Source: an uncultured Pseudomonadota bacterium (GTDB lineage: Bacteria; Pseudomonadota; Alphaproteobacteria; RF32; CAG-239). Taken from it: DNA of 64,000 bases. Location of the stretch: assembly GCA_949292375.1 (NCBI GenBank), contig CASEZG010000005.1:4546-68545 (forward strand), given 5' to 3'. The position numbers were made by a program, and so were the translations under genes. Shown in pieces: positions 12,660 to 36,506 of the stretch. The notes under the pieces were generated by a model. It saw only the letters and a program-made list of their open reading frames with translations. It did not search any database and was not told the origin of the DNA. Numbering within the stretch: position 1 is the stretch's first letter; every line of letters starts with the position of its first letter.

Positions 12660-14693
12660 ATGGCAGAAGAAGAAAACGAAGCCCCGGAAGTTGCCCCTCA
12701 ACCAGAAGCAGAAAGCGGTAACGAGATTGGTGCAAACAAATATTTGGTCAAAGAAAGATTTGAGATAGATTACTCTCAACCTTTGCCCTGGCTTGATAAC
12801 AACGGCGCAAAAGCTTATCGCGTTATAGACCGTATTGACACTAAACGTGGACTTTTTGCACTGCTTTGCAGCAACACAACCTGCCCCCGTTCAACTATTT
12901 TGCCATACATAAAATCCATTGAATGCCGTAGTCTGATGAAATTAGTAGAGTTCGGCATTGTTACTTGGCTGCCTGAAAAATCACGCAATCTTGCGCTCAT
13001 ATACAAAATGCCTCACGGAAAAGTTTTTGAAGGTGGCAAAACAACCCTTGATATTCAAAATTCTGAAAAATTCAAAAACACCTTAATCAGTCTTTTATCC
13101 GCCGTTGAAGCCTTAAAAAACTACAACATAACACACCGCGCCATTCGAGCAGATAACCTTTATTACGCTAATGCCGATAAAACAGAAATAATGCTTGGTG
13201 ATTGCTGCGCTTCTTTTCCGGCCTTTCATCAACCACCGGCATATGAAACCATCGAAAATATGCTCTCAATTCCGGAAGGAAGAGGAAACGGCAACGAAAA
13301 AAACGATATTTACTCAATCGGCGCACTCATGATGGCTCTATATCTCGGTCATGACCTTGGTTCGGATTTAAGCTCTCCAGAGTTATTACGCATAAAACTA
13401 AAAAAAGGAAGTTACCAAGCTCTCTTGGGTGAAGACAAAATCCCCAACCAAATCTCTCCCATCCTACGCCATCTTTTAAGTGACAATATAGATGCCCGCT
13501 TAAACTATATACAGGCTTATAACATTCTGGATGGAAAACCCAACAATTACACAGCTTCTGTCACATCAGACAGACCCAAAAGAACCATATCTTTCAATGG
13601 CGAAAAATTTTATAACACACGTGATTTTGCCATCGCCATAAGCTCAGCACCCGAAGAAGCCTATGAACTCATTCAATCCGGAAAACTTTTGGATTGGATA
13701 AAAAATGGTTTGGAAAATGAAAAACTTGCGGGAAAGATAGAAAAAGTCTTAACCACATCTCCCGAAGGAACAACTTCAATAGACATTATCATATCCAAAA
13801 TTTGCATTTTACTTGCGCCGGATTTACCATTAAAACTTCATAATCTATGCTTGTTTCCTGACGGAGCCCCCAAAGCAATATTTTATGCCTTACGCAATGG
13901 CTCGGATACCAAGCCTTTTCATGAACTTTTTGCGGCAGAACTTATCAAGCTCTGGTATCTGGAACAAGAACATATGCGCTCTCCGGCCAATACTGCCGAA
14001 TTCCGCATTTATATCAATCGCCAAGACATCGGTTATGGGTTGGATAGAATTATGTATGACTTTGACGATGATATCCCGTGCGTAAGCACCCTTTTAGGCG
14101 ATGAATTTGTCAACTCACCCACTCGTATTTTGCGAGCATTAGACAATACCTATGCCAAACAAATCGTTAAAAGTATGCCCTATGACCGCAACATAATTGC
14201 TTATTTACGTTGTAAAATGGGTAAAAAAATTGATGGTATCTTAACCGACTTAGCCACCAATAAAGACTATCTTCAAGCCAGCGCAATTCTGAGGCTTTAC
14301 ACCTCAATGCAAAACAAGTTCGGACCGGCTCAACTACCTCACTTATCTCAATGGTTAGCTAGTTCATCAATGGCAATTATTAAAAGTTATCATAACCTAA
14401 AATACCAAAAATTTTTGGAAAGAGAGCTGCTTAAAATCAACAAAAACGGCAAGCTTCATGAACTTTGTGATATTTTAGAAGATGAGGAAGCTCGCAACAA
14501 AGACAAGGCCAATTATGCCAAAGCTGTAAGCGACATAAACTTCTTACTCTCTGAAAAAAACAAGCTTCTCAACAATAGCTCCAAACTAGATGATGACGCA
14601 CGTAAACTTGCCATCAGATTTACTTCTATCTTAGCAATTATGGTAATGTTAGCGTCATTTCTCTTCAATCTTATCATGTGGGTATTGCAATGA
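12660..14693 (+). CDS. Hanks-type protein-kinase-like protein, probably a pseudokinase, with a C-terminal TM anchor
   Basis: The catalytic-loop region reads HRAIRADN (canonical HRDxKxxN), the DFG position reads GDC, and the downstream DIYSIGAL motif is conserved. The C-terminal hydrophobic segment is ILAIMVMLASFLFNLIMWVL. Confidence 0.6.
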   Translation: MAEEENEAPEVAPQPEAESGNEIGANKYLVKERFEIDYSQPLPWLDNNGAKAYRVIDRIDTKRGLFALLCSNTTCPRSTILPYIKSIECRSLMKLVEFGIVTWLPEKSRNLALIYKMPHGKVFEGGKTTLDIQNSEKFKNTLISLLSAVEALKNYNITHRAIRADNLYYANADKTEIMLGDCCASFPAFHQPPAYETIENMLSIPEGRGNGNEKNDIYSIGALMMALYLGHDLGSDLSSPELLRIKLKKGSYQALLGEDKIPNQISPILRHLLSDNIDARLNYIQAYNILDGKPNNYTASVTSDRPKRTISFNGEKFYNTRDFAIAISSAPEEAYELIQSGKLLDWIKNGLENEKLAGKIEKVLTTSPEGTTSIDIIISKICILLAPDLPLKLHNLCLFPDGAPKAIFYALRNGSDTKPFHELFAAELIKLWYLEQEHMRSPANTAEFRIYINRQDIGYGLDRIMYDFDDDIPCVSTLLGDEFVNSPTRILRALDNTYAKQIVKSMPYDRNIIAYLRCKMGKKIDGILTDLATNKDYLQASAILRLYTSMQNKFGPAQLPHLSQWLASSSMAIIKSYHNLKYQKFLERELLKINKNGKLHELCDILEDEEARNKDKANYAKAVSDINFLLSEKNKLLNNSSKLDDDARKLAIRFTSILAIMVMLASFLFNLIMWVLQ

Positions 14694-15187
14694 AAAAAGA
14701 AAAAGAAAAAGAAACAGAAAAAAAACCTCTCGCTAACCTAAAAAAATCATACCGCAAATTATCCATTGCGCAAAAGATGCTGTTATTTATCGGACTAATG
14801 TTCATTGTCATCAGCACTCTTCCTGCCGTCATGGTTCTTATTATCGGTCTATTGCCTACCTTCACAATTTTGATTACGGATCCCAAAAACACGGATAAAT
14901 TAGTAATCATCGGAAGTTTTAATTTAGCCGGCGTATTTATTTACCTCATGAGCATCATAAATAGCTTCACAATACACAATGCGTTTTTTATCGTCGGAGA
15001 TATTTTTAACCTGATAATAATGCTCGGATCTGCAGGATTAGGCTTAGTCGCTTACTACGAAATTCCGAACTTATTTATTTTTATAAGTAAAGCTTCCGCT
15101 CAAAAACGCCTAAAAAATATAGACACAAAATTGGCTCATCTTGCTGAAGATTGGGGAACTGATTTAATAGACCGCCAACATAACTAA
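14690..15187 (+). CDS. Polytopic small membrane protein
   Basis: The ATG at 14690 overlaps the TGA of the kinase-like gene (ATGA). There are about 4 hydrophobic helices. I recognise no family. Confidence 0.55.
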   Translation: MKKEKEKETEKKPLANLKKSYRKLSIAQKMLLFIGLMFIVISTLPAVMVLIIGLLPTFTILITDPKNTDKLVIIGSFNLAGVFIYLMSIINSFTIHNAFFIVGDIFNLIIMLGSAGLGLVAYYEIPNLFIFISKASAQKRLKNIDTKLAHLAEDWGTDLIDRQHN

Positions 15188-17233: not shown

Positions 17234-17521
17234 ATGGATAAATTAAAACTGGTTAAAACAATTGTTTTTATACTGACATTTCTGCTTGTCTTTGGGAGTC
17301 TAATGCTTATCGGAACATTATTCAAAAAAACGCATTCCGCGCCAAAAATTCCCGAAGAAATTAGCCTAAATGAACCAATCGGCAGCAGCCTGACAGAAAC
17401 ACACATTAACGACAATCTTCTTTTCTTAAGCATTGCCGATGGTGGCAAATCGGACCGCATAATCATTTTTGACACGATATCCGGTCATAAAGTTTCAACA
17501 ATATATCTGAATCAGAGGTAA
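17234..17521 (+). CDS. Small membrane-anchored protein (95 aa)
   Basis: N-terminal TM helix (IVFILTFLLVFGSLMLIGTLF). The stop codon lies 2 nt before the next start codon. Confidence 0.5.
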   Translation: MDKLKLVKTIVFILTFLLVFGSLMLIGTLFKKTHSAPKIPEEISLNEPIGSSLTETHINDNLLFLSIADGGKSDRIIIFDTISGHKVSTIYLNQR

Positions 17522-17523
17522 CC

Positions 17524-18462
17524 ATGAGCGAAAACGCCCTTAACGAAAATCCGGCAGATGAAACCAACAAAACAAACACAACTTCCGCTCAAAACACAAA
17601 AAGTTATGAGGAAGAAATTGCTGAAGACGATGAGTTTGAACGCTTGCTGAACCAATTCATCAGTGCCGAATTGGAAGATATAGATACAGGCATAGAAGAG
17701 CCTTCGCCACAAACGGCTAACACGCAACAACCAGCTCCACAACCTCAAGCCTCTGCAGCCCAAAAACCCGCCGCTCAACTTGGAAGCAACGAAACAGCTT
17801 TGTTTGAAGCATACAAAAACTTCTCAAACTCCATTGTTATGATGGCCAGTATGAACGACATTGCTGCTCCTGATTTCAAGATTAATGATTCATACCTCAT
17901 TCCCCACTACCGCAACAGAACCGGTTCCATTATTGCCGACGAAGCCCTACAAGGTTGGGAAATAATGTTTAAAATACACGCCAATGTTTTAGGCGGTTTA
18001 AATCCCAATGCTTCTGACGAAGATCTCTTAAGTTTTGCCGAACAATGCGAGGACGAAATTCTACAACTGGCCATAATCTCATACGTTGAAATCTTAATTG
18101 AAATGGAAGGCTGCGAGATAGCAATGGAAGAACGCCGCCTAAAAAGACAAAGAAAAAAGATAGAGAGAGAAATATACGAAGAACACCAACGACGTCTAGA
18201 ACGTAAACAACGCTATATTGATGCTATTAAGAAAAAAGATTTTCCCATAGACGCAGAACGCCTTGTAAATAACTATTTCAAAACAGCACAAAAAGACCCT
18301 GACGGAGCTTACCAAGTTCTGATAAATAATCCGGCAGTGTATGCCCCCATAGACACCTCAAAAATTAAGCCGCGTTTCTTTGGATTGATTAAGCCGACAC
18401 CGCAAGATGGCATCAGAATCAATCGTGAAATAGGTTCTTTTTTGAAAAAAGTAAAAGTTTAG
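17524..18462 (+). CDS. Hypothetical protein with an acidic, Q/P-rich N-terminus and a charged coiled-coil-like centre
   Basis: 312-aa ORF that is tightly linked to its neighbours. I recognise no family. Confidence 0.55.
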   Translation: MSENALNENPADETNKTNTTSAQNTKSYEEEIAEDDEFERLLNQFISAELEDIDTGIEEPSPQTANTQQPAPQPQASAAQKPAAQLGSNETALFEAYKNFSNSIVMMASMNDIAAPDFKINDSYLIPHYRNRTGSIIADEALQGWEIMFKIHANVLGGLNPNASDEDLLSFAEQCEDEILQLAIISYVEILIEMEGCEIAMEERRLKRQRKKIEREIYEEHQRRLERKQRYIDAIKKKDFPIDAERLVNNYFKTAQKDPDGAYQVLINNPAVYAPIDTSKIKPRFFGLIKPTPQDGIRINREIGSFLKKVKV

Positions 18463-18541
18463 CGAAAATATAATAAATATAGACAAAAAAGATTTTTAAT
18501 GTTAGAATAAAAACAATTAAAAGACTGATAGGATTAAAGCA

Positions 18542-20263
18542 ATGTCCGAGAATCAAAATACGAACCAAACAACAACGAGGCAACCGAACACTCAATCGGT
18601 TCAGCCGAATGCTCAGTCTCGCCCTCAGACGGTTCAACCGAACAATCAATCGGTACAACCGAATGCTCAGCCTCGCCCTCAGACGGTTCAACCGAACAAT
18701 CAATCGGTACAACCGAATGCTCAGCCTCGCCCTCAGACGGCACAACCGAACAATCAATCGGTACAACCGAATGCTCAGCCTCGCCCTCAGACGGCACAAC
18801 CGAATGCTCAGCAAACTCAGTCAAATAATCAAACATCAGATGATGATATAACATCCCACTTAGACACGAGCATAGAAGATGATGGAGCAACCGCTTCTAT
18901 AAATGAAAACACAGATACTCAGTCTGAAAACTCTGATGAAGAAGAAGCCAACGCAGCAGAAGTCAATGAAACCCAGGATAATGCGGAAACCGTTAACGAA
19001 GATATTAACTTTGACACATTATCTGTAGATGAACAGCAAGACTACCTCCATATTTTGGAAGAAAAGGACAAAAGGGGCTTACTTTCCGTCAGCGAAAAAG
19101 CAATTCTAAACGAACAAAATAAAAATAAAGACAAAAATATTGGTGACTTTGGCCCCAAAAAAGGTGACGAGAATGAAGATCCTGATCCTGAAAAGAAAGG
19201 CCCCTTCAAAGAAAAAGATGTCATCAAATATATGTACGAAGACTGGCTTTTGGAAGGTGCAAACTGGCTATGGTGCAAAACCGCATCAAAAATTGATAAG
19301 GGATGCTACTGGGCCCAGAAAAAAATTTTGGACCATATTGCAGAAAACCGCCTAAAGAAGGGAAAAACTTATGAAAGCGAACAGCAATACGACCAAATGG
19401 CCAATCATGCTGTTTCTCTTGGACAAGCCAATATGGATTCCATCAAAAAACACGAAGAAGCCCAGCTCAAAAATCTTCAACTTCTTAAAGAAGGCAAATA
19501 CGACGAGGCAAATGTTTCCAATCTGACAAAACTCATGTTTAAAAACATGGATAAGAAAGAAAAAGAACAGTTTTTCAAAATCTCTGAACAAGGCATCAAA
19601 AATTATTATGACAACTTCGCTATGGCAGAACAATTTGGCTCTAACTATGCTCAAGCCGGAATGACTTTTGACCTCGCAACTGACAAAGATTTTTATAAAG
19701 GCAAGGATATTAAAAAAGAATTTGAGCAGCAAAAAGCCAAAGCCATGAAAAAATTCTTCAACTTAATCGATGCAGCACAAAAGAAAGGTAAAGATCCCCG
19801 AAAAGTTGCAACAGAACTCTTTGAAGAATCCAAGAAAGCACTCAAAGCATCACAAGAAAATATGGAAGATCGTCATATTTCAGAACTTGGCAAAAAACCT
19901 AACAAAGATTTAGCTAAATACATAACTAGTTTAAGCAATAAGCTTAAAGAAGCCCCCGAGGAACAAGGAATGTATAGTGCTGCTTTAAACAACAAAAACT
20001 TTGACTTTGGCATCCAACAAACTCAGGACAATCTTAACAAAGCATTTGTAGCAAACCTTGACAAAAAAGCAAATAATGATGAAAAAAGAGCAAAAGTAAA
20101 TAAACTAAAAGAAGATCTTGGTTTAACGAATCAAAATATAAATTCTACAGAATTTGACCGAGTACAAGCTGATTTGCGAAAAAAAGAACGCAATCAACAT
20201 GCCGCCGACACATTATCGGGTATGGCCGCTTTGGGTGGTTATATGGGCGGAGGACGCAGCTAA
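18542..20263 (+). CDS. Repeat-containing low-complexity protein (573 aa)
   Basis: The N-terminus carries four 18-aa repeats (QPNNQSVQPNAQPRPQTV), followed by an acidic block and then a Lys-rich helical region. The stop codon abuts the next start (TAAATG). Confidence 0.6.
   Translation: MSENQNTNQTTTRQPNTQSVQPNAQSRPQTVQPNNQSVQPNAQPRPQTVQPNNQSVQPNAQPRPQTAQPNNQSVQPNAQPRPQTAQPNAQQTQSNNQTSDDDITSHLDTSIEDDGATASINENTDTQSENSDEEEANAAEVNETQDNAETVNEDINFDTLSVDEQQDYLHILEEKDKRGLLSVSEKAILNEQNKNKDKNIGDFGPKKGDENEDPDPEKKGPFKEKDVIKYMYEDWLLEGANWLWCKTASKIDKGCYWAQKKILDHIAENRLKKGKTYESEQQYDQMANHAVSLGQANMDSIKKHEEAQLKNLQLLKEGKYDEANVSNLTKLMFKNMDKKEKEQFFKISEQGIKNYYDNFAMAEQFGSNYAQAGMTFDLATDKDFYKGKDIKKEFEQQKAKAMKKFFNLIDAAQKKGKDPRKVATELFEESKKALKASQENMEDRHISELGKKPNKDLAKYITSLSNKLKEAPEEQGMYSAALNNKNFDFGIQQTQDNLNKAFVANLDKKANNDEKRAKVNKLKEDLGLTNQNINSTEFDRVQADLRKKERNQHAADTLSGMAALGGYMGGGRS
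18581..18815 (+). repeat. 54-bp tandem repeat, about 4.3 copies, in-frame within CDS 18542-20263
   Basis: Units at 18581, 18635, 18689 and 18743 are near-identical (caaccgaacaatcaatcggtacaaccgaatgctcagcctcgccctcagacggtt). A partial fifth unit follows. Confidence 0.9.
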
Positions 20264-20758
20264 ATGATTAAAAAAATCTTCAAATTTCTCAAAGCGTTGG
20301 TTGTCGGAGCAATCTGGACCGTCATTTTTGCTTATCTCGCAGAAACGACAATGATTTACTTCTGGAGTTTTGATATTTTGAATATGCGAGACTGGCAAAT
20401 TATCAACACATTTTGGGAGAGTGGCGGTTCCATAAAAACAGGAAAAGACTATTTATTTGTAGCAATGTTGTTGCTGCTCATTCCACTTTGGATATGTGGC
20501 TGGCGTTTTTTCTATCATCTAGACTTTATCAAACTTCTACTGTTTCCGTTCACTTGGTATAACAACCGTATGATAAAGAAATATGGCGACAACACGCCGC
20601 GTATTATCCTAAAAAACATGGGCGCAAGCAAAAACAAACCCAACATGGAAGAGATTATTGAGAAAAGATTAAAAGAGAGTGTAAAACCTCATGAAAAAGA
20701 AACTGGCAAAATACGCCGCTCACTTCAAGAAAAAATAACATCTTCCGAACAACAATAA
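20264..20758 (+). CDS. Membrane protein, paralogous to the N-terminus of the next gene
   Basis: IWTVIFAYLAE...FWSFDILNMRDWQ...LLLLIPLWICGW aligns with CFWSIFFLEG...LRNWRFDIFNNAHW...ILTFIPLWLTGW in ORF 20845-22113. Confidence 0.6.
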   Translation: MIKKIFKFLKALVVGAIWTVIFAYLAETTMIYFWSFDILNMRDWQIINTFWESGGSIKTGKDYLFVAMLLLLIPLWICGWRFFYHLDFIKLLLFPFTWYNNRMIKKYGDNTPRIILKNMGASKNKPNMEEIIEKRLKESVKPHEKETGKIRRSLQEKITSSEQQ

Positions 20759-20844
20759 AAAACTAAACACTTTTTAACCAATTTCGGAGTATATTAAACA
20801 ATAAAAATCTGTTTTAAAACAGAGAATTATATTTGGAGAATAGT

Positions 20845-22113
20845 TTGAAACCCTTACTCATCTTAACAAGAATCATTTTTGTCGGATGCTTCTGGAGTAT
20901 CTTCTTTCTGGAAGGCATAAGGGTAATTATGCTCCGCAATTGGCGATTTGACATTTTCAACAATGCTCATTGGTATTATGCATGGAACAAATGGAACGAA
21001 GGATGGATAATCGATGATCCCAAAGAATGGGCTTTTGTTCTCATCATTTTAACCTTTATTCCTCTATGGCTTACAGGCTGGGCAGCTTTAAGCATGATTC
21101 CTTGGGGAAAAATATTTTTAAATATTCTTCGTTTTCCATCAAGAATTTTCCGCAACTTATTTTATAAACCTGTCAAGATTATTGCTAAGAACGCCGGAGT
21201 CCCCGTCGTTAAAAAGAAAAAATCATACAAAGAAATTCGCCCCAGAGGCACCCGTGCTCCGATTATGGATTATAATGAACCCATGCGTCCATCGGTTTTA
21301 AGCAATGCGGCTAAACCAGCAACGCAGCCCAAACCCTTACCCATAAAGAAGGAAGAACCTGTTGCCGCAGCAACAACTTTTGAACACAACTTGTTCAAAT
21401 TTGATGACGACAATGATGATGACTTTGATTTCGACTTCGATTCCTTTGATAAAAAATTTGAAGAAGAAAAAACAGCACCCCAACCAAAAGAACAAGAGCA
21501 GGATACCCCCAAACCAGCTCAAACTCAAACACCAAATAAAAACAAAAACAACAACCGCGATAAAAAATCTCCGGCAAAAAATAATACCTCAGCTCAAAAT
21601 ACAGCCCCTCGTAGTGGCAACTCAACTCTGGAAGTTCTAAAACAAAAGGGCTATGAAGTTATTACCACGGCAACAATAAAAAATAGCGTCATTGACTTTA
21701 TCGGCGTGGCTGAAAAACAAATTGTTCTCTGCCTACTGGACAAAGAACCCGGCGATTGGTTAGCAGATGAAGAACGTTTCAACGACGAAGAACCTCTGTG
21801 GTTTTCAGAAAGCAGCCATAGAATATCTCCCGTACGCAAAGTTGACCTAGCTCGCAAAGTTTTGTCCGATAAATTATCTGAAGCAGACCTGAATTTCGAT
21901 ATAAAAGCTTATGTCATCGTTCAAATCGGAAACATTATTAATGCAGAAGATATGTTCGAAACCTGGGATGATTTGAATATCTCTGTAACCAGGATTGACA
22001 GAGGAACCCCAAAAGAATTAAAATTATTCTCAAAAACAATAGAAGATGCGGAAAGCCATATTGAAAAAGATAAATTTGAAAAAATCAAAAAGCTTGTTCG
22101 CAGCATAGCATAA
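20845..22113 (+). CDS. Membrane protein with a disordered linker and a C-terminal NERD/PD-(D/E)xK-like domain (tentative)
   Basis: TTG at 20845 with GGAG 6 nt upstream; the ORF track uses a TTG at 20833. The N-terminal TM module is paralogous to 20264-20758. The linker is acidic and K/N/Q-rich. The C-terminus (VIDFIGVAEKQIVLCLLDKEPGDW) resembles the NERD core. Confidence 0.55.
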   Translation: MKPLLILTRIIFVGCFWSIFFLEGIRVIMLRNWRFDIFNNAHWYYAWNKWNEGWIIDDPKEWAFVLIILTFIPLWLTGWAALSMIPWGKIFLNILRFPSRIFRNLFYKPVKIIAKNAGVPVVKKKKSYKEIRPRGTRAPIMDYNEPMRPSVLSNAAKPATQPKPLPIKKEEPVAAATTFEHNLFKFDDDNDDDFDFDFDSFDKKFEEEKTAPQPKEQEQDTPKPAQTQTPNKNKNNNRDKKSPAKNNTSAQNTAPRSGNSTLEVLKQKGYEVITTATIKNSVIDFIGVAEKQIVLCLLDKEPGDWLADEERFNDEEPLWFSESSHRISPVRKVDLARKVLSDKLSEADLNFDIKAYVIVQIGNIINAEDMFETWDDLNISVTRIDRGTPKELKLFSKTIEDAESHIEKDKFEKIKKLVRSIA

Positions 22114-22143
22114 CAAAGCAAATACAAAAAAGGGAAAACAGCA

Positions 22144-24363
22144 TTGCAAAAAAGAGGAGAAGAATGGGAAGAATATGATCATGCCGTCCAATGGATGGTC
22201 ATGACTGTTGTTATTACACTCATTGTCACCATTATACTTGCCATGATATCCATGCCTTTAGGCTATCTTATCGGTTCGGGAATATCTAAAGATTCTCTGA
22301 ATGATGTCGGCAAATTTATCTCGACAGTTTTTAATAACCCCTCATACCTTTTTTCTCGTTACTGGGCCTGGTTTAGACAACTCAGTTCCTACCGCGGAAG
22401 TTTTTCCGTAAGCCTTTGGCTGCCGATACTTCCACTGCTTTCCTTACCTTTCGGTATCATTATTGGCGTAATAACCAATCCTTATCGTTTTCAATCAAAC
22501 ATTCACGGTTCTGCCCGCATTGCCGAATATAAAGATATTAAAAAGATGGGTTTATTTGACGGTTTCTGTATGGTTGTAGGCAAATACAAAGGCCGCCTCC
22601 TAATGTTGAAAGAAACCTTATCCACTTTGTGCTGTGCTCCTCCGGGAACAGGTAAAACCGTTGGTGTCGTTATCCCGACAATTTTTAACTCTCACGGAAT
22701 GAGCATTGTTGTAAACGACCCCAAACCGGAACTCTGCTACTCAACCACCGGAGCTCGAGCTAAAGACGGCCCCGTATTTGTCATCAATTGGGGCGCAGAA
22801 GATAATCCGGCAGAGGGAATATACTATCCGAGTTGGAATCCGCTGTCTCCGAACGCATTACCCGCTCCCGGACCGGACCGCGATATGTATGTCGATTCTA
22901 TGTGTAACATCTTGGTAGAAGACCCCAAAGGAGGAGCAGATCCCCACTGGTCTAAGACCGGTCGAGCTGCCCTAACCGGCTTCATCCACTTTATTGCTTC
23001 CAAATGCGAACGTGCTAGAGCAAATGACTACTTCATCGGCCGAATATACGAAGGCAAGTTAGATGAAGAAGACAAACGTGTTCTGGAAGGCTATTATCTG
23101 GACATGCGTGACCCTATGTCTGCCCGCGCCATTCAAAACCTGCGCAACAATAACATCACCATTGATAACTATCTGCCGATAGGTACATGGCAGTTATTGC
23201 CTGAAAAATGGATTGGGCACGAATCTTGCCTGGCTATGATTTTGGAATGGATTACCGAAGCGCAAATCAAACAAGCCCAAGATATCAAACGCCGCATTGA
23301 GGAAGGAGACCAAATGGCCGCAATGTCCGACCCGATGCGTACCATGCTGGAAGAAGCTGTAGATGAGGCCAGACGTTTTGGTTATTCTCCACGTTGTATA
23401 ACAGAATTAAGCCAACTTTCCTCAATGCCGGATAAAGAGCGCGGCTCCGTCTTATCAACAGGTTTTGCAGGTATTGGTATTTTCAAAAACTCAGCTGTTG
23501 TTTCCCGCACCAGCTTTTCAGACCTGCAATTTAAAGACTTGCGCGGTATGAAAGACCCGATTACGGGTGAATGGAAACCGATTTCGGTTTACCTTTCTGT
23601 TAACCAAGTTGATGCCAGAGCTTTAGGTGTTATTTCCGGAACCTTCATTGAATTGATGTCCTCCTACCTTATCGCCAACCCGCCGAAATTCGTCAATAAA
23701 ACTGATGGACAAATGGGCCCCTTCCCTTGCTTGTTTGTTTTGGACGAGTTTCCACAGATGCCAAAGCTTAAAGCCATTATTGATGGACCTGCCGTCGGAC
23801 GTGGTCAAAAAGTTTCATACTTGCTGATTGGACAAGACTTAGGACAAATTTCGGGTAAATATGGTAAGGATGACTTGGAAACAGTTATTTCCACAACCGC
23901 ATGCAAAATCATCTTATCACAAAACAATGAGCAAACGGCTCAACGCTTTTCTAAGATGATTGGTAACAAAACAGTCCAAACAACATCTTACTCCAAGAAC
24001 GAAGGAGCTTTAGGAAAAGGCGCAAATCCCTTTGCCAAAAACGTATCCTACCAGTTGCAAGGAACATCTGTTATCAGCACGACACAACTTCTGAGCTTGC
24101 CAATGCTTAAACAAGTTGTCTTGATGCAAGGTTTTATCGACCGTCCGATTATGGCCGATGCACCTCGTTGGTACCTAGATTCTACAATGAAAAAACTGGC
24201 TGCTCTTCCTCCTTCGCCATATGTTCCGGATTGGATTGTGGCACAAAGAGAAGATATCAACGAAGACATGCTATCCAAACTCGGCATTGATTATGACCCT
24301 GAAGCGGATGATGATGACGACGAGTTTGACGAAGAAGAAGATACGCAAACACAACAAAACTAG
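22144..24363 (+). CDS. Type IV secretion coupling protein (VirD4/TraG family ATPase)
   Basis: Two N-terminal TM helices. Walker A reads CCAPPGTGKTVGVVIPT, followed by VVNDPKPEL. Walker B reads CLFVLDEFPQMPKL, followed by GQDLGQISGKYG. The C-terminal tail is acidic (DDDDDEFDEEED). The start codon is uncertain (TTG at 22144 or ATG at 22195). Confidence 0.85.
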   Translation: MQKRGEEWEEYDHAVQWMVMTVVITLIVTIILAMISMPLGYLIGSGISKDSLNDVGKFISTVFNNPSYLFSRYWAWFRQLSSYRGSFSVSLWLPILPLLSLPFGIIIGVITNPYRFQSNIHGSARIAEYKDIKKMGLFDGFCMVVGKYKGRLLMLKETLSTLCCAPPGTGKTVGVVIPTIFNSHGMSIVVNDPKPELCYSTTGARAKDGPVFVINWGAEDNPAEGIYYPSWNPLSPNALPAPGPDRDMYVDSMCNILVEDPKGGADPHWSKTGRAALTGFIHFIASKCERARANDYFIGRIYEGKLDEEDKRVLEGYYLDMRDPMSARAIQNLRNNNITIDNYLPIGTWQLLPEKWIGHESCLAMILEWITEAQIKQAQDIKRRIEEGDQMAAMSDPMRTMLEEAVDEARRFGYSPRCITELSQLSSMPDKERGSVLSTGFAGIGIFKNSAVVSRTSFSDLQFKDLRGMKDPITGEWKPISVYLSVNQVDARALGVISGTFIELMSSYLIANPPKFVNKTDGQMGPFPCLFVLDEFPQMPKLKAIIDGPAVGRGQKVSYLLIGQDLGQISGKYGKDDLETVISTTACKIILSQNNEQTAQRFSKMIGNKTVQTTSYSKNEGALGKGANPFAKNVSYQLQGTSVISTTQLLSLPMLKQVVLMQGFIDRPIMADAPRWYLDSTMKKLAALPPSPYVPDWIVAQREDINEDMLSKLGIDYDPEADDDDDEFDEEEDTQTQQN

Positions 24364-24377
24364 GCTAAGAGGCAACG

Positions 24378-25004
24378 ATGTGGGAATGGTCCAACAAACA
24401 AAAAAGCAAAACCATTTCTTCGGAGAAACCCAACAAAAACTCCGCATCGTTGCTTACGGCCTATAACGACCTGATTGGCAACAGCTATTCGGCTTACCAC
24501 AACAGAATAAAAAACATTCAAATAGCTGACACCCCTGAAAATGAACCAATATCTTCACCTTCACCGGAAGAAGTTTACAATCTCGTACAAAAAAAAATTT
24601 CTGAATTAAAACTCCCCAAAAATACTCAAATCATAGAACGAGAATATGCGCCACAATCATGGCAAGAAATGAACAAAGCTTTTGACCGCTACCATAACTT
24701 ACGCGCACGTTTTTTCAAACTACTAGGATATTCAGAACAAGAAGAATGCCTTCAGGCCGGTCTAAACGAAGCTGATATAAACACTTTGCGCGAAGGTTTT
24801 GCCCCTGAAAACTTCAATATTCATCTTAAAATTCCGGCAGACTTTGGTGGTCTTCCTGAGTTCAAAAATTTCAGCTTAATAAAGACTCATCCCTACCATG
24901 ACAATATTCATCATATTATAGATTTGCAGATAGAAAACAATTTCCTAAGAGTCTATAAAAAAATTTATTTACCCTGGTTTGAAGGAAAATTTTATCATGA
25001 TTAG
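24378..25004 (+). CDS. Short paralogue of the HNH-motif protein, with the general-base His replaced
   Basis: PENFNIHLKIPADFGGLPEFKNFSLIKTHPYHDNIHH aligns with PELNIHHKIAVQDSGEKTNFAEVNQFKNLCLIIEPYHFFAH of ORF 7470-9269, so HH has become HL. AAGAGG RBS. Confidence 0.5.
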   Translation: MWEWSNKQKSKTISSEKPNKNSASLLTAYNDLIGNSYSAYHNRIKNIQIADTPENEPISSPSPEEVYNLVQKKISELKLPKNTQIIEREYAPQSWQEMNKAFDRYHNLRARFFKLLGYSEQEECLQAGLNEADINTLREGFAPENFNIHLKIPADFGGLPEFKNFSLIKTHPYHDNIHHIIDLQIENNFLRVYKKIYLPWFEGKFYHD

Positions 25005-25449
25005 CCGCTATTTAAATCACTTTCGTCAAGCTCCGGGAAATGTTTTTTTTGAGCCGGCTGTTGAAAGAAACTTAAACAAAATCAACATAGAACTGACTAA
25101 TCGCAATTTTGCTCCAATCCCAGATGAATACCGAAATTTTCTAAAATTAACCGACGGTCTGATTTTTAACGGAATAGAATTTTATGGCTGCATGCCTCAT
25201 TATCGTGAAGAAAAAGAATACACTTTTCCAAACCTGATTACGGTAAATGAATACTACCTAAGCTATGACTATTTCATCCGAAAATTAGTAATCGGCAGAA
25301 TCTCCGAAAATCTGCTTCTTTATAATGACGCCGAAAAAGTCTACACCATAACCGACAGAATAAATCTGCGTCCCATACTAGAATGCGAAAGTTTTATCGC
25401 TTTTCTAAAGATTTTCTATGAACACGCAATCCCTGCCGAAAATCGCTGA
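24997..25449 (+). CDS. SMI1/KNR4 (SUKH)-like putative immunity protein
   Basis: The ATG at 24997 overlaps the upstream stop codon. It has a SUKH-like core (IPDEYRNFLKLTDGLIFNGIEFYG) and is homologous to ORF 9266-9676. Confidence 0.55.
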   Translation: MISRYLNHFRQAPGNVFFEPAVERNLNKINIELTNRNFAPIPDEYRNFLKLTDGLIFNGIEFYGCMPHYREEKEYTFPNLITVNEYYLSYDYFIRKLVIGRISENLLLYNDAEKVYTITDRINLRPILECESFIAFLKIFYEHAIPAENR

Positions 25450-25522: not shown

Positions 25523-25891
25523 ATGTCTGAGAACGATTCACTCCATAACCACGGCGAAGATATAATGCCTTTATTGGAAAAAATGCCAAACGAAGAAGCT
25601 TTTTATCAAGCCTCAGACATTTTTCAACAACTTTGCGACCCGACACGGTTAAGGATTTTGTGGTTATTGGCTCATTGCGAAGCCTGCGTCCAAAATGTAT
25701 CAATCGCCGTTGGTATGAGCACTTCAGCCGTATCCCATCATTTAAGGATATTGCGTCAAACCGGATTAATAACCAACCGCCGCTCAGGAAAAGAAGTTTA
25801 TTATAAACTGGCCAACACCCAAACGTCCAAACTTATCCATAAAATGATAGACGATGTTTTTGAGATGAACTGCCCTCAAAACAAATCTTAA
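25523..25891 (+). CDS. ArsR/SmtB-family metal-sensing repressor
   Basis: Winged-HTH segment (LAHCEACVQNVSIAVGMSTSAVSHHLRILRQTGLI). The ORF is 122 aa. Confidence 0.85.
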   Translation: MSENDSLHNHGEDIMPLLEKMPNEEAFYQASDIFQQLCDPTRLRILWLLAHCEACVQNVSIAVGMSTSAVSHHLRILRQTGLITNRRSGKEVYYKLANTQTSKLIHKMIDDVFEMNCPQNKS

Positions 25892-25893
25892 TC

Positions 25894-27741
25894 TTACTTA
25901 GCTTTTAAAGCGCGCATTGCATTCAAAATTGCTATAACCGAGACACCGACATCAGCAAACACGGCATCCCACATCGTGGCAACACCTTCTGCGCCCATAA
26001 TCAAAACCAAAAATTTGACCCCCAATGCAAAAACAATATTTTGCCGCACAATCTGAAGTGTTTTCTTTGAGATTCTGATAGCCTGAGCAATTTTAGACGG
26101 CTCGTCATTCATAATCACCACATCCGCAGCCTCAACGGCAGCATCTGAACCAACACCTCCCATGGCTATACCAATATCGGAAAGAGCCAAAACCGGAGCA
26201 TCATTAATTCCGTCCCCCGTAAAGACCAATTTTCCCTGCGCCGTTTTATCCTGCAACAGTTTTTCTACTTTTTCAACCTTTTGCGCCGGCAGCAAATTAG
26301 CAAAAAACTTATCTAAACCAAGTTTTTGCGCCACATTTTCCGCAACGGCAAAATTATCTCCGGTCAACATCACGGTTTCTTTTATACCAGCTCTTTTCAA
26401 TGCCAAAATTGCAGACAAGGCATCTTCCTTAATTTCATCAGCAATAAGAATATACCCCAAATATGCCCTGTTTTGTGCTACATAAACAACCGTACCGACC
26501 TCTTTTGCTTCCTCAAAACTAACCTGAAATTCATCCAAAAGACGTTTATTACCAAGCAAAACCTCTTTTCCATCAACAACAGCTTTAGTCCCTCTTCCGG
26601 CAAGTTCTTCATAAGAAGAAATTTTTTCAAAATCCGGCTCCTGACCGAAAGCCTTTCGGATAGATTGTGAAACCGGATGTGTTGAACCCAAACCGGCATA
26701 AGCCGCCAACTCTAAAAGCTTGCGATTATCAATTCCCTCACCCTGAACTTTGCAAACCTCAAAACTACCTTTGGTCAAAGTTCCGGTCTTATCAAAAACC
26801 ACAATTTCAGCCTTTGACAAAGCCTCCAAATAATTACTTCCTTTAACCAAAATACCCTGTCTGGATGCGGCACCAATACCTCCGAAAAAGCTCAATGGTA
26901 CCGAAATAACCAAAGCACAAGGACAAGAGATAACCAAAAATGTCAAAGCTCTATAAAACCAATCACTCCATAAAGCCCCGTCAATTAACATCGGCGGAAA
27001 AACGGCAATAAACACGGCCAAAAGCACAACAATCGGCGTATAATAACGCGCAAAACGCGTAATAAAATTTTCAACGACAGCTTTTTTAGAGCTGGCATTT
27101 TCAACTAAATCCAAAATTTTAGCAACGGTAGATTGAGAATAAATTCGACTAACTTTAACCTTAAGTCTGGCGGTTAAATTAATACATCCGCTTACGACAT
27201 CACTACCAACGGCAGCCTCTCTTGGCACCGATTCTCCCGTAATTGCCGACGTATCAATTAAAGAATATCCTTCTATAATTTGCCCATCCAAGGGAATTTT
27301 TTCTCCAACATTTATAATGATGAGATCATCGACAGCAACATCTTCTGGCGCAACCTTAACAACCTTTCCGTCTTTTTCAATATTTGCATAATCCGGACGA
27401 ATATTCATTAAGGAAGCAATAGATTTGCGAGATTTTGCCACGGCATAAGATTGAAATAACTCGCCAATCTGATAAAACAACATTACCGCAACGCCTTCGG
27501 AATATTCGCCTATGGCAAAAGCTCCGATTGTTGCCAAAGCCATCAAAAAATTTTCATCAAAAACTTGCCCATGCCCGATATTTTTCAAAGCTTTAAGCAA
27601 AACCGGCAAACCGACAATCACATAAGCACTCAGCCAACAAGCCAAACGCCAAACTTCTTGCTTGACGGGAAGAAAAAAAGCACCCAAAAACAAAATTGCA
27701 GCAATTAAAATTTTATACAGAAGTTTGCGTTGCTTTTTCAT
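25894..27741 (-). CDS. Heavy-metal-translocating P1B-type ATPase (Cd/Zn-like) without a fused N-terminal metal-binding domain
   Basis: SCPCAL transmembrane metal site, DKTGTLT phosphorylation site and GDGINDAP hinge. The protein begins directly in a TM segment. Confidence 0.9.
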   Translation of the reverse strand: MKKQRKLLYKILIAAILFLGAFFLPVKQEVWRLACWLSAYVIVGLPVLLKALKNIGHGQVFDENFLMALATIGAFAIGEYSEGVAVMLFYQIGELFQSYAVAKSRKSIASLMNIRPDYANIEKDGKVVKVAPEDVAVDDLIIINVGEKIPLDGQIIEGYSLIDTSAITGESVPREAAVGSDVVSGCINLTARLKVKVSRIYSQSTVAKILDLVENASSKKAVVENFITRFARYYTPIVVLLAVFIAVFPPMLIDGALWSDWFYRALTFLVISCPCALVISVPLSFFGGIGAASRQGILVKGSNYLEALSKAEIVVFDKTGTLTKGSFEVCKVQGEGIDNRKLLELAAYAGLGSTHPVSQSIRKAFGQEPDFEKISSYEELAGRGTKAVVDGKEVLLGNKRLLDEFQVSFEEAKEVGTVVYVAQNRAYLGYILIADEIKEDALSAILALKRAGIKETVMLTGDNFAVAENVAQKLGLDKFFANLLPAQKVEKVEKLLQDKTAQGKLVFTGDGINDAPVLALSDIGIAMGGVGSDAAVEAADVVIMNDEPSKIAQAIRISKKTLQIVRQNIVFALGVKFLVLIMGAEGVATMWDAVFADVGVSVIAILNAMRALKAK

Positions 27742-27752
27742 ATAAATAAGTC

Positions 27753-27986
27753 CTATCTCACAAGTGTCACATCATCATCAACTTTGGCTATCTGCTTTTC
27801 AGCCTTATCCAAAATCTCTTCAAAACGCGATTCTTCCGCTTCCAAGACCAACTTTCCCGTCATAAAAGAAACCGTAGCTGAAATAACACCCTCAATTTGC
27901 TGAATCGCTGTCTCTATTTTTGCAGCACAGTTAGCACAGTCCAAATCTTGTAAAACAAAAGTTTTTTTCATAACCGCCTCACTCAT
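27753..27986 (-). CDS. Stand-alone heavy-metal-associated (HMA) domain protein
   Basis: 77 aa with a DCANCAAKIE (CxxC) motif. It lies 11 nt upstream of the ATPase on the same strand. Confidence 0.8.
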   Translation of the reverse strand: MSEAVMKKTFVLQDLDCANCAAKIETAIQQIEGVISATVSFMTGKLVLEAEESRFEEILDKAEKQIAKVDDDVTLVR

Positions 27987-28053
27987 TCAAACATTCGTTT
28001 AATTGTTTATATGTTTAAGGTATCATAATATTTCAGCCTTGTCAACAACCAAT

Positions 28054-34392: not shown

Positions 34393-34659
34393 ATGAATGA
34401 AGTAGAAGTATTAGACATATCCCGCGAAGCCATTTTTACCCTAATAAAAGTGGTTAGTCCGGCATTGCTGGTGGCCTTATTTATCGGTTTAATTATCGGT
34501 ATTTTTCAAGCTCTGACGCAAATTCAGGAAATGACTCTGGCATTTGTACCAAAGATTCTCGGTGTGTTTTTCACCTTAACCCTGCTTTTTCCGTTTATGT
34601 TAAACCAAATGCGAATGTTGTCCGAAACCCTGTTTGATAAAATTGTAAATGGCGGATAA
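34393..34659 (+). CDS. fliQ: Flagellar export gate protein FliQ
   Basis: 88 aa with two TM helices and the conserved QALTQIQEMTLAFVPKI. Confidence 0.9.
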   Translation: MNEVEVLDISREAIFTLIKVVSPALLVALFIGLIIGIFQALTQIQEMTLAFVPKILGVFFTLTLLFPFMLNQMRMLSETLFDKIVNGG

Positions 34660-34664
34660 GCACA

Positions 34665-35426
34665 ATGACAGAGCTGCTTAATCTTGAAATATACCGCTTT
34701 ATATTTATCTTTTTGAGGATAGGCTCGGCAATGGTTGTGATGCCGGGCTTTGCGGTCTCTTATGTTACGGAGCGTCAAAGACTTTCCATCGCTCTGGCCA
34801 TAACTGTTGTCCTTGTTCCATTTTTAAGCAGCTATCTTCCCCCTGCCCCGACAGATTTTTTAGAATTTCTGCGCATTGCATTATTTGAAATAATTTATGG
34901 CGTATTTATGGGAATTTTTATGCAAATGATGTACTCGGCATTAAGCCTGGTCGGTAATTTTGCCGGACAAGCCATCAGCTTTTCCAACGCCCAAAGTTTT
35001 GACCCCACATTCCAAAACCAAAGCATCGTCATTGAAACCTTTTTAAGTCTTGTAGCCTTAACCGTTATTTTTGTAACAGACTTACATCATCTGATGCTTT
35101 CCGCAGTCATTGACAGTTATCAATTATTTCCGGTCGGGGTCTCTTTACCCGTAGCCGATTTTTCAGACTTTCTAAGCCAAACCGTAAATAAAAGTTTTAT
35201 TATCGGTTTCAAAATTGGTTCACCATTTATCGCTTTTTCCATTATTTTTTATGTAGGTATGGGGCTGGTTTCAAGATTAATGCCCCAATTAAACATTTTC
35301 TTTTTGTCTTTGCCGCTACAAATCTATCTGGGGCTGGGATTATTATTCCTAACCACCCCGATAATGATTCTTTGGTTTACCAAATATTACGAAGACGGCT
35401 TAATAAAATTTACGTCGGGGAGCTAA
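34665..35426 (+). CDS. fliR: Flagellar export gate protein FliR
   Basis: 253-aa polytopic membrane protein between fliQ and flhB. The N-terminus (FIFIFLRIGSAMVVMPGF) is typical of FliR. Confidence 0.85.
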   Translation: MTELLNLEIYRFIFIFLRIGSAMVVMPGFAVSYVTERQRLSIALAITVVLVPFLSSYLPPAPTDFLEFLRIALFEIIYGVFMGIFMQMMYSALSLVGNFAGQAISFSNAQSFDPTFQNQSIVIETFLSLVALTVIFVTDLHHLMLSAVIDSYQLFPVGVSLPVADFSDFLSQTVNKSFIIGFKIGSPFIAFSIIFYVGMGLVSRLMPQLNIFFLSLPLQIYLGLGLLFLTTPIMILWFTKYYEDGLIKFTSGS

Positions 35427-35429
35427 AAG

Positions 35430-36506
35430 ATGATAGCCGAAGATGAAGACGAATCATCGAAAACCGAAGAACCGTCGGAACGAAAAATAAGCAAAGCCAA
35501 AGAAGAAGGTGATATTGCCATCTCCCAAGATGCCAAAAGTTTCATCATGCTCATCGGCATGCTTTTTGTAATATGGCTGATATTACCCCTAATGTTCAAA
35601 TGGTTTTATATTTTTTCATTGCGTTTTATAGAAACACCGGAAGCCATTCCGACAGATGGCAGACATCTTCGTTTATTAATGTATGAATGCGTTTTAGCCC
35701 TTATCAAAATCTTAGGAATTCCTTTTGCCATATTTATGCTTTTGGGCATTTTTGCAAGTGTCGCCCAAACCGGCTTTGTTTATGCCCCGAAAAAACTTGA
35801 GCCCAATTGGAACAAACTCAATATTTTTGCGGCACTCACCCAATTTATTAATATGAAAAAAATCGTAGAAAGCTTAAAAGGCATCATCAAAATTACGGTT
35901 ATTGCTTTTATCGGGGTTCTGGTTTTAAGACCTTACTTAGAAAAAGTAAACCTAATGCCTGAAATGGATGTTATGGCTATTTTATCTTTCATTCACAAAG
36001 TCGTCGTCGTCCTAATCTTCACGGTAGTTATAGCTGTTTTTGTCATTGCTGTAGCCGACTATGCTTACCAAAAATACCAACATTTGAAAAAACTACGAAT
36101 GACCAAGCAAGAAGTCAAAGACGAATATAAGCAAATGGAAGGTGACCCTTTGGTCAAATCGCGCATCCGACAAGTTCGTATGGAAAGAGCCCGTCACCGC
36201 ATGATGGATGCGGTTCCCCGTGCCGATGTAGTTATCGTCAACCCGACGCACTATGCTGTTGCGCTAGAATATAAAATGGAAACAATGGACGCACCGGTAG
36301 TCGTTGCCAAAGGTTTGGATAATTTGGCTCTACGCATTCGCGAAATAGCCGAAGAACACGAAATCCCGATTGTAGAAAATCCACCGCTGGCGCGTGCATT
36401 ATTCGCATCAGTAGAACTGGATCAGTCAATTCCGGCCGAACATTTCAAGGCCGTAGCCGAGGTAATTGGATATGTTATGCAGCTTAAAAACCCGCAGACC
36501 AGATAA
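35430..36506 (+). CDS. flhB: Flagellar export switch protein FlhB
   Basis: Autocleavage motif NPTHYAVAL, plus KMTKQEVKDEYKQMEGDP. The ORF is 358 aa. Confidence 0.92.
   Translation: MIAEDEDESSKTEEPSERKISKAKEEGDIAISQDAKSFIMLIGMLFVIWLILPLMFKWFYIFSLRFIETPEAIPTDGRHLRLLMYECVLALIKILGIPFAIFMLLGIFASVAQTGFVYAPKKLEPNWNKLNIFAALTQFINMKKIVESLKGIIKITVIAFIGVLVLRPYLEKVNLMPEMDVMAILSFIHKVVVVLIFTVVIAVFVIAVADYAYQKYQHLKKLRMTKQEVKDEYKQMEGDPLVKSRIRQVRMERARHRMMDAVPRADVVIVNPTHYAVALEYKMETMDAPVVVAKGLDNLALRIREIAEEHEIPIVENPPLARALFASVELDQSIPAEHFKAVAEVIGYVMQLKNPQTR

Follow-up and report, generated by a model that had tools for sequence, protein, structure and literature searches.

A conserved VirD4/TraG-type coupling protein with lineage-specific partners in gut alphaproteobacteria, probably the coupling module of a dispersed type IV secretion system

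What a type IV secretion system (T4SS) exports is decided by its coupling protein (T4CP), and only few sets of T4CP partners are well described, namely the relaxosomes, the DotM/N-IcmSW-LvgA set and CagZ. A block of eight genes on a 64,000-nucleotide stretch of DNA from an uncultured alphaproteobacterium (contig CASEZG010000005.1, positions 4,546 to 68,545; the whole stretch is the window in the following, and all positions refer to it) would add a set for which no relation to these is detected. The block is found at 17234-25449 and has a T4CP of the VirD4/TraG type as its anchor. It is probably the coupling module of a chromosomal, vertically inherited T4SS of the VirB/VirD4 type, the channel genes of which lie elsewhere on the chromosome.

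For the rvh system of the Rickettsiales, a scattered and duplicated layout of the T4SS genes has been described (Gillespie et al. 2009, PMC2653234). The block shares with the rvh and other VirB/VirD4 systems a T4CP of the VirD4/TraG family with a membrane anchor, Walker motifs and a TraG-D_C domain. As with rvh, it is chromosomal, vertically inherited and highly conserved, and in relatives of its host the T4SS genes are found in islets, with virB8 duplicated around a small virB7-like gene and with unrecognisable open reading frames (ORFs) after virB4. In the rvh system and in the nearest plasmid systems, however, virD4 directly follows virB11, whereas here the T4CP gene stands alone beside rpoH-rluD. 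Also, four of the partners have no rvh counterpart, the T4CP fails the NCBIfam cut-offs for VirD4/TraG, and the VirB10 of the relatives is a repeat giant of 2,100-2,800 aa. The hosts are free-living, flagellated gut bacteria and not intracellular ones, and the channel in the genome of the window is a putative one.

The block had been described in an initial annotation, made from the DNA alone, as eight consecutive genes on the same strand with spacings of -26 to +79 nt, and the ORF list of the window recovers all eight on the plus strand with identical coordinates and gaps (in order +2, +79, 0, +74, +30, +14 and -26 nt). The start codon is uncertain in two of the genes, with other gene callers giving 422 aa for the 426-aa protein and 150 aa for the 156-aa protein (ATG at 24997). 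Within the block there are promoter-like sites, such as those at 21995-22024 (in front of the T4CP gene) and at 18480-18508, and no convincing plus-strand terminator is found between the genes. The annotators had seen no T4SS channel gene, relaxase or integrase, and indeed neither a VirB, Trb or Dot gene nor a relaxase or integrase is detected in the block or the rest of the 64-kb window by Pfam scans of the block ORFs and 30 further ORFs, by precomputed Pfam matches for the 25-39 kb stretch, or by tblastn, in which VirB4, VirB8, VirB9, VirB10 and VirB11 proteins gave no match below E 0.28 in the whole window. The G+C profile of the window reveals no island, and no tRNA target was found at the block.

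The 739-aa protein (22144..24363, plus strand) is, by its domains and motifs, a T4CP with an intact set of ATPase motifs. It is matched by the Pfam families PF02534 (T4SS-DNA_transf, 193 bits, E 1e-56, cut-off 20.1), PF12696 (TraG-D_C, 82.7 bits) and PF10412 (TrwB_AAD_bind, 59.7 bits), and its hydrophobic N-terminal stretches at about aa 17-40 and 84-110 correspond to two transmembrane helices. The Walker A motif APPGTGKT is found in the context CCAPPGTGKTVG and the Walker B motif LFVLDEFP in the context CLFVLDEFPQ, and their residues K171 and D534 are invariant throughout the T4CP clade. The protein also has an all-alpha insertion and an acidic C-terminal tail, its reading frame is intact, and the only solved structure matched by the profile of the clade is Cag-beta (8DOL, 1.4e-13). 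Pfam, motifs and the 8DOL match thus agree with the description of this protein as a VirD4/TraG coupling protein with two transmembrane helices, Walker A and B motifs and an acidic tail.

Within the T4CP superfamily, no named VirD4/TraG subfamily takes up this protein according to the available family models. All NCBIfam subfamily models score under their cut-offs (CD1115-type 137 vs 250; VirD4 PRK13897 129 vs 728; IncP TraG 120 vs 674), and equivalog-level membership of VirD4, IncP TraG, Ti TraG or F TraD is not reached in NCBIfam. As the T4CP is far below every NCBIfam cut-off for VirD4, TraG and TraD, it represents a divergent branch. The closest plasmid-encoded or annotated T4CPs are 34-35% identical and are encoded on alphaproteobacterial megaplasmids within classic virB8-virB9-virB10-virB11-virD4 clusters, in a variant of which two small ORFs separate virB11 and virD4. 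The small hypothetical ORFs in this position on a Microvirga plasmid were considered as kin of the 164-aa and 426-aa proteins of the block and are unrelated. With Cag-beta (Cag5) and CagZ of H. pylori the block has in common that a T4CP occurs with a lineage-specific partner, and Cag is an effector-translocating, non-conjugative T4SS, but no partner in the block is homologous to CagZ, and cag lies on a pathogenicity island, whereas the block is a fixed locus of the core genome.

How strongly this locus is conserved can be seen from a scan of one genome per GTDB species, which gave 484 loci with this T4CP clade. The best 80 of them were used, together with 80 metagenome loci, for a tblastn survey to which profile HMMs were added and in which short loci cannot show the full order. 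The order rpoH(-), rluD(-), 95-aa gene, 312-aa gene, slot of the 573-aa gene, 164-aa gene, 426-aa gene and T4CP gene is unbroken in every sufficiently long locus. Across the 80 species loci the T4CP is 77-97% identical, whereas the values are 61-90% for rpoH and 58-85% for rluD, which indicates a stronger constraint on the T4CP than on the housekeeping genes beside it. Its partners vary more, with identities of 41-81% for the 426-aa protein, 37-76% for the 312-aa protein, 27-78% for the 164-aa protein (its position is held in all RF32-type loci), 33-73% across most close relatives for the 95-aa protein, and 23-58% across species for the 573-aa protein, which its profile finds in 96 loci and always in the same slot. 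The 312-aa protein, the repeat protein of the 573-aa slot, the 164-aa and the 426-aa protein remain closely spaced and in the same order relative to the T4CP in lineages with as little as 64% T4CP identity, and at 49% identity a domain of the 426-aa type and a pair of the 208/156-aa type are still found beside it. As the order is kept throughout, these four proteins and the T4CP make up the conserved unit. The 208/156-aa pair at the 3' end follows the T4CP in about a third of the species (~27 of the 80 loci for the 208-aa gene) and is variable cargo, and it is doubtful that the 95-aa gene, a member of a general family, belongs to the module. The block is not a uniform unit of eight genes. Gene order is strongly kept among relatives, and the neighbours match no known Tra or Dot family of a classical conjugative element, so that neither of the two findings that would have spoken against the initial annotation was made.

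The T4CP is 89-96% identical to proteins on thousands of gut metagenome contigs and metagenome-assembled genomes (MAGs), and the exact T4CP of a close relative occurs in 7,040 blocks of an assembly index, some of them on whole-genome contigs of 1.95-2.04 Mb. Complete genomes in which the block is found include GCA_965643355.1, with contig CBFFOQ010009871.1 of 2.04 Mb, and GCA_041324975.1, with JBGLGN010000001.1 of 1.95 Mb. Among the bin names of the lineage are 'Azospirillum sp. CAG:260', 'Azospirillum sp. 47_25/51_20', 'Proteobacteria bacterium CAG:495' and 'Candidatus Scatocola', and we take this uncultured, genome-reduced lineage of gut alphaproteobacteria to be the GTDB order RF32. Members of RF32 have fewer than 2,000 genes according to a 2026 paper. 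No pertinent literature was found on RF32 or CAG-239 in connection with T4SSs, or on orphan VirD4 proteins. A full block with a T4CP of 82-83% identity is also present on an 829-kb contig (L037, JAISVX010000003.1) in a record labelled 'Lactobacillaceae bacterium', which is probably mislabelled or a chimeric MAG.

A metagenome scan seeded with distant T4CPs returned mostly the same gut lineages, but also a sister clade of T4CPs and a distant relative, locus L156 (60% G+C, T4CP 49% identical), that links the module to channel genes. In L156, fliK, flgD and flgE are followed by a 415-aa gene similar to the 426-aa gene, a 129-aa ORF, the T4CP gene, a 319-aa gene similar to the 208-aa gene and a gene similar to the 156-aa gene, and the locus then continues with a virB7-like gene, VirB8 (Pfam 5e-19), VirB9 (CagX 7e-16) and a giant VirB10 that is cut by the contig end. 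The VirB9 of L156 has 1,369 relatives, and among the top 120, from which identities (42-59%) and names were taken, the few named ones are listed as Alphaproteobacteria bacterium, while cluster members have names such as 'Acetobacter sp. CAG:977'. The related virB genes are found in three contexts, all of them chromosomal. The first comprises virB4, five unrecognised ORFs, virB8, a 66-aa gene, a further virB8, virB9, a giant gene with a C-terminal TrbI/VirB10 domain and virB11, the second is the part from virB8 to virB11 alone, and the third is a form with a single virB8. The arrangement virB8-(58-66 aa)-virB8-virB9 occurs in L172, L176, L178, L194 and L195, whereas L184 and L215 have one virB8, and the five ORFs after virB4, the place of multiple virB6 paralogues in the rvh layout, have no Pfam match in L172. 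In all three contexts no virD4 follows virB11, and housekeeping or flagellar genes are found there instead. The term orphan that was given to the T4CP thus holds within the 64-kb window, but as the module of L156 adjoins virB7-virB10, it probably does not hold beyond this scale.

The giant VirB10 of the related virB loci has 2,100-2,830 aa and contains internal repeats of hundreds of residues (Pfam 'Bflower', weak RHS) before the TrbI domain. It is encoded at 11614-20109 in L172, 11608-18552 in L176, 11692-18744 in L184, 3378-9983 in L195 and 11680-19047 in L215, and also in L178-L183, and within one species, strains differ in its length (2,438 to 2,664 aa). Flagellar genes are frequent neighbours: fliK-flgD-flgE lie beside the module in L156 (3545-8058), FlaF, fliI, fliJ, flgH, flgA and flgG are found next to virB11 in L195-L204 (10975-20978 in L195), and the window itself encodes fliQ, fliR and flhB at 34400-36506, about 10 kb downstream of the module. 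The flagellar proximity of both the module and the virB8-virB11 islet may go back to an ancestral arrangement in which they were contiguous.

The T4CPs of the sister clade are 34-39% identical to that of the window and are also chromosomal and alone, with no virB gene within 10 kb. In front of them there is always a gene for a pentapeptide-repeat protein (Pfam E 1e-17 to 3e-37) that replaces the 164/426-aa pair, and PepN is often encoded further upstream. The pentapeptide-repeat genes are located at 8483-9943 in L096, 8978-9964 in L126 and 8693-9697 in L168, and they are also present in L115, L117, L120, L167, L169 and L171.

The partner encoded directly upstream of the T4CP is the 426-aa membrane protein (20833..22113, plus strand), which is proposed to be a T4CP-docked receptor or processing subunit. 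It shares its N-terminal membrane module with the 164-aa membrane protein (20264..20758, plus strand), which is this W-rich two-helix anchor module alone (BLASTP 3e-14), and the paralogous transmembrane module that the initial annotation had recognised in the two proteins is therefore real. The 426-aa protein belongs to a family of 929 members, of which the listed ones are from gut metagenomes and MAGs. After the two-helix, W-rich anchor, a basic KKKKSYKEIRPR follows, and by the positive-inside rule the remainder of the protein should thus be cytoplasmic. This remainder begins with a variable linker, has the invariant acidic motif FDHSLFKFDD..DFDFNFDAFD between this and a second variable linker, and ends with a very conserved domain of about 165 aa that contains an invariant stretch of 33 residues in the family alignment (DKEPGDWLADEERFNDEEPLWFSESSHRISPVRK). 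The C-terminal domain is homologous to the protein that is encoded two genes upstream of the T4CP in L156 (9e-16).

The C-terminal domain is modelled with a restriction-endonuclease-like (PD-(D/E)XK) fold. AlphaFold2 models were made of the full-length protein and of the C-terminal domain alone (the latter with pLDDT 80.6 and pTM 0.78), and both have an a-bbb-a-b-a-b topology. The best Foldseek matches of the domain in the PDB are Cdn1, N.BspD6I, AF1548, the R2 endonuclease domain, EndoMS, SfsA, Hjc and Card1, nearly all of them PD-(D/E)XK proteins, and the matches are weak (E 0.008-0.1, TM score 0.33-0.42, probability up to 0.98); the Pfam family NERD gives E 0.47 on the protein. Strand 2 carries an invariant D288, and strand 3 ends with the conserved residues D303-K304-E305, a spacing that is not canonical for PD-(D/E)XK enzymes, and D288 is not clearly kept in the alignment with the homologue of L156.

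The position of this gene had been compared to the DotM-DotL arrangement, and with Legionella Dot/Icm (DotL-DotM-DotN-IcmSW-LvgA) the block indeed has in common that the gene directly before that of the T4CP codes for a membrane protein with a cytoplasmic domain and that extra small or acidic proteins are found in the same operon, and the idea of a multi-subunit receptor platform fits both. However, no protein of the block has similarity to DotM, DotN, IcmS or IcmW, the T4CP groups with VirD4/TraG and not with DotL, and the related channel genes are VirB-type. The 426-aa protein has no match by sequence in Pfam, NCBIfam or the PDB, and DotM is absent among the 50 Foldseek matches listed for its models. 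The DotM analogy finds support neither in the sequence nor in the fold, which resembles PD-(D/E)XK nucleases, and was rejected.

The 312-aa protein (17524..18462, plus strand) is a cytoplasmic core partner. Its N-terminus is variable, acidic or Q/P-rich, and has a conserved motif EDDEFE.LLN.FI, whereas the C-terminal ~200 aa are conserved (…ISYVEILIEIEGCEI…FPIDAERL..NYFKT…NPA.FAPI…RFFGLIK). It is encoded upstream of the T4CP in the RF32-type loci and also in L097 (T4CP 64% identical), and searches of Pfam, NCBIfam, PADLOC and PHROGs and a profile search of the PDB gave no match for it. It is followed by the fast-evolving repeat protein of 573 aa (18542..20263, plus strand), a candidate substrate or adaptor with N-terminal Q/P/N-rich repeats of 18 aa, an acidic stretch and a K/E-rich helical C-terminal half, for which no family is found in Pfam or NCBIfam. 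The tandem repeats noticed in this gene are confirmed as a 54-bp repeat with 4.1 copies at 18581-18804 that encodes QSVQPNAQPRPQT(A/V)QPNN units. Among strains with an identical T4CP the repeat protein has 409, 573, 580 or 616 aa, a length variation that is repeat-driven and contingency-like. The 95-aa protein (17234..17521, plus strand), encoded by the first gene after the divergent rluD, is a single-pass membrane protein of a general alphaproteobacterial family (Pfam DUF6476, 28.4 bits vs cut-off 24). The profile of its family finds 94 copies, and by tblastn it is not detected in several more distant loci that otherwise keep the module.

In Pfam, NCBIfam, PADLOC and PHROGs, the partners have no match to Tra, Trb, Vir, Dot/Icm, defence or phage families, and for the 312-, 573-, 164-, 426- and 208-aa proteins nothing useful was found in these databases or in sequence and profile searches of the PDB. 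Judged by these searches, the partners fit no Tra or Dot family, and four of them are lineage-specific. PADLOC gives only a marginal match to the T4CP on the whole block, and a reading as a defence system was rejected for this reason.

The last two genes of the block encode a 208-aa protein (24378..25004, plus strand) and a 156-aa protein (24979..25449, plus strand), which had been described as an HNH-like/SUKH-like pair. The 208-aa protein has a variable N-terminus and a conserved C-terminal domain and may be an effector or toxin. Its family has the C-terminal motif PENFN.H.KIP.DFGGT..F.N..LI.THP.H.NIH in the alignment, but no HNH domain is found by Pfam in five family members, by NCBIfam, or in the PDB by sequence or profile, so that the HNH likeness is that of a motif recognised by eye, the first His of which is lost in L156. 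It matches two PHROGs of unknown function (1e-6), and homologues are also present in L097 and in L156 (BLASTP 4e-16 for L156). The SUKH part of the description fares better: the 156-aa protein, a candidate immunity protein or chaperone, is above the cut-off of NCBIfam NF038335 (YrhA/YPO0640, 68.7 bits vs 55), whereas the Pfam families SMI1_KNR4 (SUKH-1), SUKH_5 and SUKH_6 give 18-21 bits and remain under their gathering scores. The 156-aa gene always accompanies the 208-aa gene, and the presence of the two co-varies.

A 136-aa paralogue of the 156-aa protein (profile 7e-16; BLASTP 2e-6) is encoded at 9266-9676 (plus strand) of the window. The gene upstream of it, 13 kb upstream of the T4CP, overlaps it by 4 nt and encodes a 599-aa protein without Pfam family (7470-9269, plus strand) that has a stretch 'ELNIHHKI…N…EPYH' like the motif of the 208-aa protein; the two are not significantly similar in BLASTP. 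That the paralogue follows a protein without family suggests that the 599/136-aa pair is a second cargo pair of the effector/immunity type.

With such pairs the locus can be compared to the bacteria-killing X-T4SS of Xanthomonadales, which is also chromosomal and of the VirB/D4 type: a putative toxin/immunity-like pair directly follows virD4 in the window, and a second pair with a paralogous SUKH-like gene is encoded elsewhere in it. Unlike in the X-T4SS, neither an XVIPCD domain nor homology to X-Tfe or X-Tfi proteins is detected by Pfam, the 208/156-aa pair is absent in about two thirds of the species, and the toxin role of the 208-aa protein is putative, with the motif His lost in L156. A further difference is that SUKH proteins are cytoplasmic, whereas the X-Tfi immunity proteins are periplasmic lipoproteins.

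If the block is the coupling module of a T4SS, virB4, a virB6-like gene and virB7-virB11 would lie at other places of the chromosome, much as the rvh genes of Rickettsia are scattered. A T4CP hexamer would form an inner-membrane coupling complex together with the 164-aa and 426-aa proteins, and the latter would bring its acidic FDFDF linker and its domain with the nuclease fold close to the ATPase ring of the T4CP. In this complex the 426-aa protein may be a lineage-specific substrate receptor or a subunit that processes nucleic acids, comparable to DotM or CagZ in its role but not in its ancestry. The acidic, partly disordered 312-aa protein and the repeat-bearing 573-aa protein would be adaptors or substrates. 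Where the 208/156-aa pair is present, it could represent an effector with its immunity protein or chaperone, a cargo pair that the T4CP would receive and that would leave the cell by the distant VirB channel. The strain-variable repeats of the 573-aa protein and of the giant VirB10 of the relatives point to surface or target interactions under diversifying selection. It is a tentative and rather doubtful extension of these considerations that a prevalent, uncultured order of alphaproteobacteria of the human and animal gut has a core-genome T4SS with an undescribed gate complex, in which a VirD4-type ATPase is joined by two paralogous membrane subunits, one of them with a membrane-tethered PD-(D/E)XK nuclease-fold domain. 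This complex would either process nucleic acid in a relaxase-independent DNA route or be a new effector receptor, and the system would deliver strain-variable cargo, HNH-like toxins with SUKH immunity proteins among it, into neighbouring cells.

The initial annotation had left open whether the block is one piece of a dispersed T4SS or an undescribed T4CP-dependent module. The former is the better supported option, since the module of L156 adjoins virB7-virB10 and the virB loci of relatives have no virD4; of the latter it holds that the conserved partners (the 312-aa, repeat, 164-aa and 426-aa proteins) match no family, but not that they form part of a uniform eight-gene unit. Several points weigh against a dispersed T4SS. 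In the lineage of the window, a comparison of VirB9, VirB11, T4CP and 426-aa matches found no virB locus together with a window-type block on one contig or in one assembly, and in ~160 loci, L156 excepted, there is no virB gene within 10 kb of the T4CP. The link that L156 provides comes from a distant organism, as its T4CP identity of 49% and its G+C content of 60% indicate, and where sample and sequencing coverage did allow a T4SS locus to be paired with a T4CP, which was so for one locus, the T4CP was of the sister clade (L188 with L167). Moreover, the nuclease-fold assignment rests on Foldseek matches with E 0.008-0.1 and TM scores of 0.33-0.42, and the roles of the partners are ones that we infer. 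Some of these points would agree with an orphan, T4SS-independent inner-membrane translocase for DNA or proteins, in which the T4CP works with its two membrane partners and the nuclease-fold domain and which this genome-reduced lineage has co-opted for a core function, for instance in the export or uptake of DNA, in the handling of the chromosome or in delivery to the envelope. Conservation of the T4CP exceeds that of sigma-32 and RluD, L156 is the single exception to the missing virB neighbourhood, the partners are lineage-specific and of no Tra/Dot family, a PD-(D/E)XK-like domain in one of them would suit DNA handling, and the T4SS genes of the lineage of the window are putative. However, the homologous module in L156 is contiguous with virB7-virB10, related gut alphaproteobacteria have complete-looking virB loci that miss exactly a T4CP, and we know of no T4CP that has been shown to act without a VirB4-containing channel. 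Such a machine is thus unlikely.

It would be most improbable for the block to be a decayed integrative conjugative or mobilisable element, the T4CP of which survived after the loss of relaxase, integrase and channel. Conjugative elements typically have a T4CP, their cargo commonly includes genes such as an HNH-like/SUKH pair or a repeat protein, and an ArsR-CopA metal island that is limited to close relatives lies just downstream, but the same chromosomal site beside rpoH-rluD and the same gene order in 80 species-level genomes, the window without integrase, relaxase, VirB4, tRNA target or composition break, and a T4CP with intact frame and ATPase motifs that is constrained above flanking housekeeping genes weigh against it. 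A chance juxtaposition of the T4CP with unrelated genes that form no functional unit is somewhat easier to imagine, as the first gene, tied to rluD, is a member of DUF6476, a family that is general among alphaproteobacteria, the last two genes are variable and promoter-like sites are found within the block. It is nevertheless quite improbable in view of the order and spacing that the 312-aa, repeat, 164-aa and 426-aa genes keep with the T4CP gene down to 64% T4CP identity, of the 426-aa-type domain and the 208/156-type pair that still accompany it at 49%, and of the intergenic regions without a convincing plus-strand terminator.

The block is fixed in the core genome of a widespread, uncultured and genome-reduced gut lineage. 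If the link to the virB genes is true, and the block thus is the coupling module of a dispersed T4SS, these bacteria depend on a chromosomal effector-translocating T4SS that is probably directed against neighbouring microbes or host cells, and this could be part of the reason why a specialist with a poor metabolism is able to persist in the gut. The repeat protein, the 208/156-aa pair and the 599/136-aa pair would be candidate substrates, and a membrane-tethered subunit with a nuclease fold at a T4CP would be new to the field.

The remaining window is ordinary chromosome, with genes for PFOR, peptidases, Sua5, a GGDEF protein, rpoH, rluD, ArsR/CopA, PBP5, MipZ and PGM, and it also encodes, besides the already mentioned fliQ/fliR/flhB, a hybrid kinase, Hda, EptA, TetR-AcrAB, UmuDC, FeoAB and a porin. 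The DNA that separates the block from PBP5 (25523-28000) codes for a regulator of the ArsR family, a P-type metal ATPase of 615 aa (minus strand) and a metallochaperone with an HMA domain. This ArsR-CopA island is found only in the closest relatives of the window; the species with an 89%-identical T4CP is without it and has an HNH_3 gene in that place in some strains. On the other side, a 677-aa protein that is weakly protein-kinase-like (Pfam Pkinase 9e-4; PADLOC MkoA 1.6e-9) is encoded at 12660-14693 (plus strand), directly followed by the gene of a 169-aa membrane protein at 14678-15187 (plus strand). Most of the 80 species loci have both genes, with 39-88% identity and just upstream of rpoH, and the two thus accompany the neighbourhood of the T4CP.

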